Assembly: GCA_964588985.1 (NCBI GenBank)
Contig: CAZPQW010000024.1
Coordinates: forward strand, 1 to 49,081
From: an uncultured Solirubrobacteraceae bacterium
Lineage (GTDB): Bacteria > Actinomycetota > Thermoleophilia > Solirubrobacterales > Solirubrobacteraceae
DNA: 49,081 nucleotides
Direction of reading: 5' to 3'
This document shows, piece after piece, positions 31,575 to 35,403 of the stretch (position 1 is the first letter of the stretch; the number at the start of each line of letters is the position of its first letter). The notes below the pieces were generated by a model that was given only the letters and a program-made list of their open reading frames with translations, had not been told where the DNA came from and searched no databases. Made by a program: the position numbers and the translations under genes.

Positions 31575-34500
31575 ATGGAGCAACCAGATGGTACGCCTGG
31601 CCCATCGGCGACCGGTCGGGCGCCTGCCCAGGAAGGCGCCGGTCTGGCGCTGATATCCCCCGAGCGCTTCGAAGCGCCCACCACGACGCCGGAGCTGGAC
31701 CGGCTGAGCATGCTCATTGCCAGCCCGAGCTTCGTGTTTGCGCGAATGGGGCTAGTTGCGGCCATCTACCAGGACGTGCTGCTTGGCGCGCGCAACATCG
31801 ACGGAGCGCTCGCCGAGATCAATGCGGCCGCGACAGCCGCGACAGCGCCGCCGGAGTACTGTCTGCGCCTGGGCGTCCTCGCGGTCATGCTGATCGCGAA
31901 CGGACGTCCCCGAGACGCGATGACACTCACGCGACTGCTGCTCGCCGCGACAGAACGCGCGCATGGTGAGCACAGCCATTCGTGGATCCAGGCGGCGACC
32001 GTATGGATCCAGGCCTCGTTGGCCGTCGGACTGACGCCCGGCTCGTCACAGCTACACGGGCTCACCTCCGTGAGCGACCAGTTGGTCGATCGAGCACGCG
32101 AGCTCGCCGACGGCGGACAGCTGCCCGCAGTCCTGTCGATCGTCGGGCAGCTCTGGCATCGCATCGCAGCCGACGACCCGGACGCCGACGGCGGCCAAGC
32201 CCTCGGGCGGGCGGTGAGGACGCTCGAAGAGGCGGCTTGCCTGGCGAGCCCGGCCGAGGCGCCCCGTATCAAGCTCGCGCTCGCGCAAGCGCAGGCGAGC
32301 GGCAGCGACGCACAGATAGAGGCAGCACGCACCGCCCGCGAGGCGATGTCGTCGATCGATCGCACGCAAAACCTCCACGAGTGGCTACAGGCACGCCGTC
32401 TCGTGCACGAGCTTGATCCCGACGCCAATGAATACGCTCCGGTGAGCATCGTCGAGCTGACCGAAGTTCGCGACAGCGCAGGCGTGAAGGCCGCACGCGA
32501 GCTCCTGCACGCCGAAGCACGCGATCTCGCCGATCACGGCCGCCACGCCGAAGCGGGACGTCTGCTGTGTGAGGCTTGGGAGCCGCTCGAACTCCACACG
32601 ACCAAGGACGAGCTGGCCCGCGAGGCGCTGCTCAGCACCGCGATGCACATGATCGACGAGGGCGCGATCCCGTGCCGCGCGCTGGACGCCGAGGAGGCGG
32701 CACGTTATGCGCTTGCGAGCGAGTCGCTCCCGCACGAGCAACGGCTGGCCGCCCGTGTGCACCTCGCGCTTCACAGCCCGATTACCACTGATGACGCGTC
32801 GGCGTGGCCGATCCGCGAGGCGCATCTGCTGGGAACACTCAACACGCGCATCTACCGCGAAGCGCTGGGCTTCGGCAGCGGTGTCGTGCACGCCACGCAC
32901 GCGAGTCGATCCCCGCTCGCGCTGCCAGCAGTCGCCTTTCGCCTCGAGGTGCTCGCGAGCTCCCTTTTCGCGGAGGTTCGGATCACGACGCTGGCGCACG
33001 GGGCGCTCGCGAGCGCTCTGCAAAGGTTGCAGAGCTGGCGGACCACAGCCGAATCGGCCGCCGACCCCGGCTCGCTGGAGGAGGCGCGCAAAGAACTTGA
33101 GGTGATGCTCGCCACGTGCGCCCAAGCAGCCCCGATGCTTGAGGTCAATCTGGGCGACTCCTGCCGGGAGTGGCAGCTCGAGGCTGGCCGACTGCTGTCC
33201 GCGCCGGCGCGCACCGCGCAGACCTCGTCGGTGATCCTCGCGGTAGAGCACAGCGCTGCCTTCAAGGGAGCCCTAACAACAGAGCTGCTCGACCGGGCCG
33301 GTCCCTGGCACGAGGGCGATGACGGCCGCAGCTATCGCAGGCAGATCGGTGAAATCGAAGCGAGCGAGCGACCCGTGCCACCGACCGCCGGTGTGGATGA
33401 GGACCTCAACGAAGAAGCGAGACGTTGCGCGTGGCTAGTCGCCGGCGAGCGTTTCTCTGGCGACTTGCAGAGCCACAGCCGTCGAAATCTGCAGGCGGAC
33501 TATGACGAAATGCTCCTGAGGAAAGTGACAGCCGAGAAGGTGGCTACGCCTCGACAGGCCGATCCGGTGCTGACCATCGACGGGCTGTTCGAACAGCTAG
33601 GGCCGCGCACCGTACTCGTCGACATGTTCCTCGGACGGAACGCCGATGGGCGCTACACGTGCTTCTCCACGCTCGTCTCAAAGGACATCCGCGCGCCGTT
33701 CTCCGCCCCGAGCGCCGCGGAGGAGCTCGTCACCTATCGAGATCCTCAGGATGCCAACCGACACGTCGCGCTGGACGGCATGGCGCAGCTGGTCGCCCAT
33801 GTCCGCCACTACGTGCGTGCTCTCGCCGGCCAGCGCCGTGTCAGCCGCGAGGGTGAGCAGGCGCTCGCGGCGGCGCGGTCGATGCTGCCGATTCCAGATG
33901 GCGCGCTTCGGGAGCTGAGAGAGCTGGGCTATGAGCACCTTCTGCTGTGCCCGCACGGACCGCTGGCGTTGATGCCCTTCCAGCTGCTGCCCATCGACGG
34001 AGGGACGCTCGCCGATGAGTGGACGATCACGACGATCCCGACGGTCGGCGGGCTGCTCGCCCCACCTGCGCCGGCGCCCAATCGAAGGGAGTCTCTCGGT
34101 CTGGTCGTCTCAGCGGACGGCGGGACGCCTTTCGGCCTCCAGCCCGAACCACGCCTGTGGGAGCAGGCCGCAGCCCTGCGGGAGCTGCCGATCGAGACGG
34201 AGATGCTCCCTCTCGGCCAGTCCACCCCACGGGCCGCGATTGAAGCGCTCGAGCTCCACAGGTATGTGCATATTGCGGCACACGGCTCGGCGCTCGACCA
34301 GGTGCCCTCGTATCACTGCCTGTTCCTCGACCCTCCCAGTGGCACGACTAACGACGGGCGCCTGTTCGCGCACACGGTCCTGGGCGCTGATCTGCGCGGT
34401 GTCGAGCTAGTGACGCTGTGCGCCTGCGAGACCGCCGTGGGCCGCTCCGATCGGGCGGGCAACCTCAGAGGACTACCGCTGGCGTTCATGATGGCCGGGG

Positions 34501-34694
34501 CGCGGACCGTGATCGCGACGCTCTGGCCGGTGGCGACGGAGCCAGCGATGGAGTTCTTTGTGGCGCTCTATCGTGAGCTGGCGGGGGGCGCAGCCAAGCG
34601 GGACGCGTTCGGTGTGGCGCAACGCGAGTGTCGCGCGAGCTTCCCACGCTTTGCGGATTGGGGCGCGTTCACGTACATAGGCGATTGGAGGTGA
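31575..34694 (+). CDS. CHAT domain (caspase-like) protease with long helical N-terminal region
   Basis: LLLCPHGPL..PF..L, YVHIAAHG (catalytic His), LVTLCACET (catalytic Cys), GL..AF..AGAR.VIATLWPV, WGAF.YIG. Confidence 0.93.
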   Translation: MEQPDGTPGPSATGRAPAQEGAGLALISPERFEAPTTTPELDRLSMLIASPSFVFARMGLVAAIYQDVLLGARNIDGALAEINAAATAATAPPEYCLRLGVLAVMLIANGRPRDAMTLTRLLLAATERAHGEHSHSWIQAATVWIQASLAVGLTPGSSQLHGLTSVSDQLVDRARELADGGQLPAVLSIVGQLWHRIAADDPDADGGQALGRAVRTLEEAACLASPAEAPRIKLALAQAQASGSDAQIEAARTAREAMSSIDRTQNLHEWLQARRLVHELDPDANEYAPVSIVELTEVRDSAGVKAARELLHAEARDLADHGRHAEAGRLLCEAWEPLELHTTKDELAREALLSTAMHMIDEGAIPCRALDAEEAARYALASESLPHEQRLAARVHLALHSPITTDDASAWPIREAHLLGTLNTRIYREALGFGSGVVHATHASRSPLALPAVAFRLEVLASSLFAEVRITTLAHGALASALQRLQSWRTTAESAADPGSLEEARKELEVMLATCAQAAPMLEVNLGDSCREWQLEAGRLLSAPARTAQTSSVILAVEHSAAFKGALTTELLDRAGPWHEGDDGRSYRRQIGEIEASERPVPPTAGVDEDLNEEARRCAWLVAGERFSGDLQSHSRRNLQADYDEMLLRKVTAEKVATPRQADPVLTIDGLFEQLGPRTVLVDMFLGRNADGRYTCFSTLVSKDIRAPFSAPSAAEELVTYRDPQDANRHVALDGMAQLVAHVRHYVRALAGQRRVSREGEQALAAARSMLPIPDGALRELRELGYEHLLLCPHGPLALMPFQLLPIDGGTLADEWTITTIPTVGGLLAPPAPAPNRRESLGLVVSADGGTPFGLQPEPRLWEQAAALRELPIETEMLPLGQSTPRAAIEALELHRYVHIAAHGSALDQVPSYHCLFLDPPSGTTNDGRLFAHTVLGADLRGVELVTLCACETAVGRSDRAGNLRGLPLAFMMAGARTVIATLWPVATEPAMEFFVALYRELAGGAAKRDAFGVAQRECRASFPRFADWGAFTYIGDWR

Positions 34695-34698
34695 TGAG

Positions 34699-35403
34699 AT
34701 GGCCGACGCACTGGTGCCGATGCCGGCGGTAAGTCACGGGGCGGACGTCGAGCTGACCGCGCAGGAGACGCTCGGGTGGGGTGGGCCGGTCCAAAGCCGT
34801 CTCGTGCTCGGTCGCTCTGATGTGGTGCCGATGGTCGCAGCGGAGGCGGTCGAGGACCAGCCGCTCGCCGCCTATCTCAAGAGCATCGCGCAGGAGTTCT
34901 CGCTTGTGCGCCTAACGCTGCGCCTCACCCTGCAACCAGCTCTCGGGGAGAGCATCGAGGAAGCGCTGTTCTCGCTGTCACTAGCGGCGCCGCAGGCCGA
35001 CGCCGCGGACCAGCCTTTCGTTCGCGCGCTCGCGCCGGAACGACTCGAGTCCGGGCCTTGTCGTGTGGACCGGGGAATCAAGCTCGGCTTCAAGGCGGGC
35101 GTGCCCGGGCTACCTGTCGAGGTCGAGGCGGGCTGGTCCAACGCCACGGCTGCGGAGAAGCGCTCCTTCTACTTGGTCGCGTACGGGCTCGGCACGACGT
35201 TGGTCGAGTGGCGCTTCAAGCGCACCCCGACAGTCGAGCTTGACGGCAGCTACGAGGTGGGTGCAATCGTCCAGCTCAAGCGCCACGTCGCAGCTGAGGC
35301 CGGCCTCTCCATTGGCGGTGAGGTGCGGGCGCATCATCGACGGCGGCAGCTCGAGGGAGTTGTGGGAGAGGGCTTCTCGCCTGTGGCGCTCAGCCCTGGT
35401 TGA
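34699..35403 (+). CDS. Beta-rich hypothetical protein coupled to the CHAT protease
   Basis: Starts 4 nt after CHAT stop with GGAGGTGA RBS; 234 aa; no signal peptide. Confidence 0.8.
   Translation: MADALVPMPAVSHGADVELTAQETLGWGGPVQSRLVLGRSDVVPMVAAEAVEDQPLAAYLKSIAQEFSLVRLTLRLTLQPALGESIEEALFSLSLAAPQADAADQPFVRALAPERLESGPCRVDRGIKLGFKAGVPGLPVEVEAGWSNATAAEKRSFYLVAYGLGTTLVEWRFKRTPTVELDGSYEVGAIVQLKRHVAAEAGLSIGGEVRAHHRRRQLEGVVGEGFSPVALSPG

Follow-up and report, generated by a model that had tools for sequence, protein, structure and literature searches.

What is the small gene that follows a CHAT (caspase-like) protease gene after only four nucleotides, and what might the two do together? The question is raised by a locus in a 49,081-nt stretch of DNA from an uncultured Solirubrobacteraceae bacterium (contig CAZPQW010000024.1 of assembly GCA_964588985.1), which we refer to as the window. 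Here, a large CHAT protein (P0001) is encoded directly upstream of a 234-residue protein (P0002), for which a first-pass annotation, made from the bare sequence, had proposed a role as a protease-activated pore former in cell death or phage defence. Based on homologue searches, a survey of related loci, and structure prediction, we propose that the two genes make up an abortive-infection module: the CHAT protease, with its repeats as sensor, would license a hemolysin-like pore former inside the cell. This reading is given a probability of about 0.5.

Both genes are located on the same strand (Table 1). The stop codon of P0001 (TGA, 34692-34694) is separated from the start of P0002 by 4 nt (34695-34698), and this spacing, together with the GGAGG motif 7 nt before the P0002 ATG, fits translational coupling. 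The P0002 frame is not a chance open reading frame (ORF), because it has 98 homologous representatives and a GC content at third codon positions (0.80) that matches the CHAT gene (0.79). A scan of positions 31000-36200 for promoters and terminators yielded no signal over shuffled background. The first-pass annotation had described an intact His/Cys dyad in P0001, and this is borne out: the CHAT domain is matched by Pfam at E 7.4e-37, and His903-Gly904 and Cys951 are invariant in all 21 CHAT domains aligned from related loci. By its intact dyad, P0001 appears to be a catalytically competent protease. The preceding ~770 residues have no Pfam match. Their character is indicated by the Atlas feature neighbours of P0001, which are TPR-repeat and TPR-CHAT clusters (scores 0.90-0.93, a lead only), and by TPR_12/TPR_1 Pfam matches in the partner proteins of two related loci (G094 and L057).

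P0002 belongs to a family of small proteins, mostly of 200-250 residues. A phmmer search run exhaustively over 1.84 billion cluster representatives returned 98 proteins at E ≤ 1e-3, 12 of them at E ≤ 1e-10 and 6 at E ≤ 1e-30, including the window's own sequence; a word-indexed search with P0002 retrieved only itself and one relative. In the 77-sequence family alignment (A1), P113 and W171 are invariant and G183 nearly so. The first-pass annotation could not assign the effector to a known family, and P0002 matches no model in Pfam (E ≤ 0.01), NCBIfam, or PADLOC, and its 77 aligned members show neither a recurrent Pfam match at E ≤ 1 nor a PADLOC match at E ≤ 0.1, with the Pfam library used confirmed to contain Leukocidin, CATRA-C, and CATASP. 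The Atlas neighbours of P0002 are unnamed clusters, commonest in Actinomycetota. The predicted lack of a signal also holds, as no signal-like or transmembrane segment is present in P0002. Across the 77 members, a 19-residue window with a Kyte-Doolittle (KD) hydropathy of at least 1.6, a possible transmembrane helix, occurs once, and a hydrophobic N-terminal window, a possible signal peptide, likewise once. P0002 thus reads as a cytoplasmic protein without signal peptide.

The distribution of the family is sporadic. In the window's phylum, 1 of 400 other sampled genomes carries it, as do 32 of 401 sampled Streptomycetaceae genomes (about 8%; this sample was built from the family of Streptomyces sanglieri). 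A tblastn search of plasmids gave a single record, a plasmid of Streptomyces sp. NBC_01724, and the search of phage records found no family member. Only two fusions were seen, P0075 (387 aa, no Pfam match) and the metagenomic P0046 (953 aa), an EAD1-trypsin-TIR protein with the family domain at its C-terminus; a word-indexed search with A1 found no longer fused forms, a negative of little weight. Judged by its domain order, P0046 is a natural protease-effector fusion and places the family in another protease/conflict-system context.

The gene-neighbourhood survey that the first-pass annotation had called for supports the pairing. We examined 32 loci; L066, which starts within the gene, is uninformative, and the count does not include five more Streptomycetaceae genomes whose matches are fragmentary. 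Of the 31 informative loci, 28 have a CHAT gene as immediate neighbour, a count of mutually related loci rather than of independent events. The pairing is kept between subfamilies with no more than 22-43% identity to P0002. Among the 20 strongest Streptomycetaceae loci, 18 have an adjacent CHAT gene, 16 immediately upstream on the same strand and 2 convergent; one of the 16 upstream genes is cut by a contig end, and its CHAT domain was confirmed by Pfam. Five of six weaker Streptomycetaceae loci also have a CHAT neighbour, two of them in reversed gene order. In a distant subfamily, reversed order is found in L061 (G513) and L064 (G497), where the small gene comes first and overlaps the CHAT gene by 4 nt. 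The listed small ORF of L061 is 413 residues long; residues 240-410 match the family, and the extension has no Pfam match.

Tight spacing recurs beyond the window. On a metagenome contig carrying a member of the window's own subfamily (43% identity), a 918-residue CHAT protein ends 3 nt before the homologue, while in G094 the stop of a 1227-residue TPR-CHAT protein overlaps the homologue's start. On the NBC_01724 plasmid, a gap of 7 nt separates an annotated CHAT protein from the homologue, and the pair adjoins AbiEi/AbiEii together with transposases and insertion sequence (IS) elements. S. sanglieri carries a decayed pair (L007/L008; G401:C8:2719742-2720431), in which the homologue contains two in-frame TGA codons and the CHAT gene is split into at least two ORFs. 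The CHAT domain was confirmed by Pfam in all seven partner proteins scanned and in four further ORFs beside a family gene. No third gene is conserved across the loci; apart from antisense shadow ORFs and unrelated ABC ATPases, nothing recurs. The P0001 and P0002 genes almost certainly form a functional module.

What kind of protein is the CHAT partner? The beta-rich character noted in the first-pass annotation is reproduced by structure prediction. AlphaFold2, run on A1, models P0002 as an all-beta sandwich (model 1; predicted local distance difference test score (pLDDT) 87.8, predicted template modelling score (pTM) 0.81) with a single low-confidence stretch at residues 125-148 (pLDDT < 50). 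A Foldseek search of this model against the PDB gave 84 matches at E ≤ 1e-3 (best E 1.2e-5), and every listed match with a title naming its molecule is a pore toxin of the alpha-hemolysin/leukocidin family, comprising NetF, NetB, LukD, alpha-hemolysin, delta-toxin, gamma-hemolysin, beta-toxin, CytK, VCC, and Epx1. In a second search with model 1, 49 of the 50 listed entries belong to this family. Monomeric toxin structures align with model 1 over ~150 residues at 3.0-3.2 Å, end to end in both chains. Model 2, of the distant member P0068 (24% identity to P0002; pLDDT 83.9), gave 126 matches at E ≤ 1e-3, headed by pore-form chains of the same family (7q9y at 1.1e-8). Moreover, Leukocidin is the nearest named Atlas feature cluster of P0002 (0.88, a lead only).

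On the strength of these models, P0002 probably has a hemolysin-like fold, its predicted sandwich resembling the cap domain of the alpha-hemolysin/leukocidin family. The first-pass annotation had pointed instead to aerolysin, gasdermin, and MACPF folds. Chains of gasdermin, aerolysin/ETX-MTX2, and MACPF/CDC proteins are not among the fold matches listed, an absence that does not exclude those families, and the top of the list is held by the alpha-hemolysin/leukocidin family. Matches in BFVD are uncharacterised RNA-virus and phage proteins with TM-scores of at most 0.35 and are uninformative. A four-copy prediction of P0002 with A1 reached ipSAE values of 0.03 and 0.00 against a mark of 0.42 and weighs neither way.

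The low-confidence stretch of model 1 coincides with the element on which the pore-former proposal was originally built. The peptide GIKLGFKAGVPGLPVEVEAGWSNAT, described there as an amphipathic alternating hairpin, corresponds to residues 126-150 of P0002 (nt 35074-35148), and its alternation is a family-wide property. Over the 77 sequences, columns 127, 129, 133, and 135 are 92-99% hydrophobic, and the interleaved columns 128, 132, and 134 are only 3-10% hydrophobic and Lys-rich. Column 130 is Gly in 60% of the sequences, and column 137 forms a Gly/Glu/Pro turn. The return strand alternates at positions 142-147, with Glu common at 143, 145, and 147 on the polar face. Gly accounts for 12.7% of the loop compared to 6.4% elsewhere in the protein, and Ser, Thr, and Lys are also enriched. 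In 39 of the 77 sequences, no more than 5% of composition-preserving shuffles alternate as strongly as observed (1.8% for P0002). In model 2, the region equivalent to loop 124-151 is drawn as a long protruding beta-hairpin with strands 121-138 and 147-167. Such a pattern would be expected if a short beta-hairpin spanned the membrane with its charged face to the lumen, which does not prove that it does; loop 124-151 has the Gly-rich, amphipathic character of the stem hairpin in the alpha-hemolysin/leukocidin family. The idea of a protease-activated pore former is partly supported, by the CHAT linkage, the amphipathic hairpin, and the pore-toxin-like predicted fold, and its fold class has shifted to alpha-hemolysin and the leukocidins.

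Several observations weigh against this assignment. The TM-scores of the fold matches are low (0.23-0.36), and in VIA-align the toxins score no higher than generic non-lytic beta-sandwiches. The Leukocidin model PF07968 matches neither P0002, nor any of the 77 members (E ≤ 1), nor the genome, and the family profile finds no match among PDB sequences at E ≤ 10. Comparison of A1 with LukF-PV, LukS-PV, and a 14-sequence leukocidin alignment by hhalign is not significant, with probabilities of 0.2, 0.1, and 0.27% and E values of 0.31, 0.5, and 0.23. All three best alignments, non-significant as they are, place the segment around the invariant Pro113 on the invariant Y-A-P-K-N segment of the leukocidins, which sits just before their Gly-rich region. 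That region is presumably the stem. Loop and stem are not equated at residue level, the hints to a common register being the ranking of pore forms in the model 2 search and these alignments. With 234 residues, P0002 is ~60 residues shorter than the toxin chains (264-300 residues), and the membrane-binding rim domain is probably reduced or absent in the predicted structure. With 21-32 residues (median 26), the loop is short, and the hydrophobicity of its return strand is no more than moderate (62-66% at columns 142, 144, and 146); the same alternation could arise in any edge hairpin that is exposed or in a loop bound to the protease. Further, 3 of the 31 informative loci have no CHAT neighbour: L043 has no protease nearby, in L060 the match covers a C-terminal fragment only, and in L045 (G450:C1, 6650-12674) the family gene lies on the same strand just upstream of genes for TIR-EAD1 and TIR-NB-ARC-TPR STAND proteins. 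The neighbours in L045 suggest that the effector can be wired to other sensors.

The best-surviving alternative, which we regard as rather unlikely, draws on several of these points. It holds that the CHAT module is functional but P0002 no pore former: as a soluble beta-sandwich, it would be the protease's substrate, adaptor, inhibitor, or decoy. The loop could then serve as bait, and its cleavage would set free a fragment with a signalling role or with toxicity of another kind, in the way that Csx30 and CalpT serve their proteases. Gene linkage is explained equally well in this way, and the undetectable sequence homology to toxins, the VIA-align scores of non-lytic sandwiches, and the moderate hydrophobicity of the return strand all fit; so does the low confidence of the loop in model 1, as bait loops show it. 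However, the top Foldseek ranks are occupied only by hemolysin-family chains for two independent family members, and it is the pore forms that rank first for the model with the extended hairpin. A bait loop needs neither strict alternation nor Gly/Ser/Thr enrichment over ~20 columns. Moreover, the domain also occupies the C-terminus of the EAD1-trypsin-TIR protein. With both sides considered, we lean slightly towards P0002 forming pores.

The module probably serves conflict or defence. Its IS, AbiE, and TIR/EAD1/NB-ARC contexts, the sporadic spread, and the pseudogenised copy are typical of defence islands. They also bear on a second, improbable alternative, according to which the pair is not directed against phage at all: it would mediate developmental or kin-directed death in filamentous actinobacteria, or P0002 would be a non-classically exported anti-competitor toxin with the CHAT protein as its maturation protease. 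The concentration of the family in Actinomycetota and Streptomycetaceae, lineages with programmed cell death in development, agrees with this, as does the fact that its structural neighbours are secreted toxins. Yet possible signal-peptide and transmembrane stretches are confined to single members of the alignment, no secretion genes are conserved near the pair across the loci, and the contexts and distribution named above point to defence. Highly improbable, finally, is that the fold resemblance is a model artefact and the second ORF without specific function: both structures are predicted and their underlying alignments overlap (A3 is a subset of A1), but 98 representatives of conserved length with invariant P113 and W171, the high model confidence, and a CHAT pairing that outlasts the divergence of the subfamilies speak against it.

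For the protease-licensed pore former, we propose the following course of events. The TPR-like repeats of P0001 would sense an infection or invader cue and switch on the CHAT domain. The activated protease would then cut the latent cytoplasmic P0002, which would oligomerise, and the hairpins would insert from inside as a beta-barrel into the cytoplasmic membrane, leading to cell death. A candidate cleavage site is the conserved polybasic turn V209-R-R-(K/R)-(R/K) before the last strands, with R210 present in 40, R211 in 39, and K/R at positions 212 and 213 in 42 and 38 of the 77 sequences, followed by Y218 in 45 and R219 in 40 of 76. Cleavage at residues 210-216 would shorten the protein by a tail of ~20 residues, in the manner of gasdermin and Pepco. 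Alternatively, licensing might occur within the N-terminal ~35 residues of P0002, a cut that would parallel the freeing of the domain from the long N-terminal part of the P0046 fusion. If events take this course, P0002 would be the first protein of the alpha-hemolysin/leukocidin structural class to act inside the cell, a suicide pore former licensed by a TPR-CHAT protease; we put this forward tentatively, at somewhat less than even odds.

Table 1. Features of the CHAT protease-P0002 gene pair (positions in the window).
Feature	Residues	Position (nt)	Strand	Evidence
CHAT protease gene (P0001, 1039 aa, ATG start)		31575..34694	+	ORF list, translation, Pfam CHAT
TPR-like helical repeats, presumed sensor	N-terminal ~770	31575..33884	+	Atlas feature neighbours
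CHAT (caspase-like) protease domain	779-1037	33909..34685	+	Pfam E 7.4e-37
Catalytic His codon (His-Gly)	903	34281..34283	+	Invariant in 21/21 aligned CHAT domains
Catalytic Cys codon	951	34425..34427	+	Invariant in 21/21 aligned CHAT domains
GGAGG Shine-Dalgarno within 3' end of CHAT gene		34687..34691	+	7 nt ahead of P0002 ATG
P0002 gene (234 aa, ATG start), presumed effector, predicted hemolysin-like beta-sandwich		34699..35403	+	ORF, translation, homologue search, fold search
Gly-rich amphipathic loop or hairpin, candidate membrane-inserting stem	124-151	35068..35151	+	Models, column alternation
Conserved polybasic turn before last strands, candidate cleavage site	210-216	35326..35346	+	Column profile

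In the window, the pair is surrounded by genes of mobile and defence type. An rve-family integrase (12818-13879, -) and a Mutator-family transposase (24755-25585, -) flank a segment with an AAA_16 ATPase (17328-18164, +) and a protein combining NERD with a UvrD-like helicase (19517-21283, -), and the GC content drops to 0.55-0.60 around 14-16 kb and 19-21 kb. These GC dips together with the mobile and helicase genes suggest a mosaic mobile or defence region. None of the window's neighbour genes is conserved beside the pair in other loci.

Closer to the pair, a 456-residue protein (26260-27630, +) shows a weak Peptidase_M48 match (E 2.7e-6) and matches the NCBIfam model 'phage exclusion protein Lit' at E 2.6e-7, far below the model cut-off; by these matches, it may be a Lit-like metallopeptidase defence gene. 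A Macro (E 2.6e-9) and double-zinc-ribbon protein (28431-30101, -) is followed by a 596-residue ORF with weak TPR signals (29689-31479, -), which is divergent from the CHAT gene. As listed, these two overlap by ~400 nt, so at least one start is wrong. Downstream of the pair, two Golvesin_C proteins (37493-39022 and 40303-41748, both +; E about 1e-22) enclose a 326-residue ORF without any family.

Protease-gated death effectors increasingly appear to be a central principle of prokaryotic immunity, parallel to caspase-gasdermin pyroptosis, and only a few effector families have been worked out. To these, the pair adds an unnamed family with the predicted fold of the best-studied bacterial pore toxins. 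The logic is already known; the effector family and the fold class are new in this role. In the literature searched, no CHAT protease is described as the partner of a hemolysin-like effector; an earlier mention, e.g. in the supplements of PMC12642450, is possible. If the proposal is true, a further protease-gated family of pore effectors would stand beside gasdermin, Pepco, and EACC1, and the secreted beta-barrel toxins of staphylococci and clostridia would have a structural and perhaps evolutionary root in common with the immune effectors of bacteria. Confirmation would mean that the hemolysin architecture can also operate from within the cell when controlled by proteolysis, would bear on the origin of the secreted beta-barrel toxins, and would provide a compact, protease-switchable beta-barrel pore of 234 residues, of interest for nanopores and synthetic cell-death tools. 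The module is easy to test because it consists of two genes and has no accessory components.

How does the pair compare with known systems? The caspase-TPR-associated system CATRA/CATASP is said to combine a caspase-superfamily protease and TPRs with small associated proteins, to which the present architecture bears a likeness. Membership was considered and rejected, as CATRA-C (PF20270) and CATASP (PF20271, 86 positions) have no match in the genome or in the 77 members. With Craspase (Csx29/Csx30) and with Borvo BovA, P0001 shares helical repeats followed by a C-terminal CHAT domain with His/Cys dyad, and P0002 would hold the place of the dedicated neighbouring substrate gene of Craspase. Pfam, NCBIfam, and PADLOC scans of the larger ORFs around the pair matched no CRISPR-Cas model, though no search was aimed at CRISPR-Cas genes or arrays. 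Borvo is a single gene and differs further in that P0001 has no full-length BovA match; the PADLOC BovA model matches marginally (E 0.0037, 13.9 bits) over the 57 residues 946-1002 around the catalytic Cys.

The organisation resembles that of bacterial gasdermins, which are reportedly encoded next to a caspase-like/CHAT protease. In both cases, a protease gene lies beside a gene for a signal-less, latent effector of ~230-270 residues, proposed to be a pore former released by cleavage. In contrast, the fold of P0002 is unrelated on present evidence, and PADLOC and Pfam scans gave no gasdermin match for P0002 or the 77 members. The N-terminal Cys, which is palmitoylated in bacterial gasdermins, is absent from P0002.

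A close parallel in logic is provided by Pepco and EACC1 (Evans et al, bioRxiv 2025, PMC12642450). These are likewise small actinobacterial proteins encoded beside serine or cysteine proteases fused to sensors, and a single site-specific cut turns them into active pore formers that permeabilise membranes. Pepco has 117 residues, forms a pre-assembled 9-10-mer barrel, and loses a 2-kDa C-terminal tail, while EACC1 is built around a transmembrane helix. P0002 differs by its 234 residues, its predicted fold, and its lack of a Pfam match. No Pfam match, to Trypco or any other family, recurs among the 77 members at E ≤ 1. The preprint names ten protease-associated families, MBL, alpha/beta-hydrolase, Pepco (= Trypco1/2), EACC1, PCaspase, bGSDM, CATASP, MPE, CalpT, and Csx30, and the P0002 family is not among these ten.

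In structure, the nearest comparison is the alpha-hemolysin/leukocidin family (PF07968: Hla, LukF/S, gamma-hemolysin, NetB/NetF, CytK, and the VCC core). P0002 differs from these toxins in its shorter chain and hairpin, the probable lack of a rim, and the absence of detectable sequence homology. It is found in Actinomycetota rather than in Bacillota or Vibrio and is paired with a protease instead of being a secreted virulence factor. Without signal peptide, it would act from the cytoplasm on the producer's own membrane. The likeness consists in the predicted cap-like sandwich and in the Gly-rich amphipathic hairpin that protrudes from it in model 2. With protease-licensed death modules of the bGSDM, Pepco, EACC1, and MBL type, in turn, the pair shares conserved adjacency, an intact protease dyad, and a defence or mobile context with sporadic distribution.

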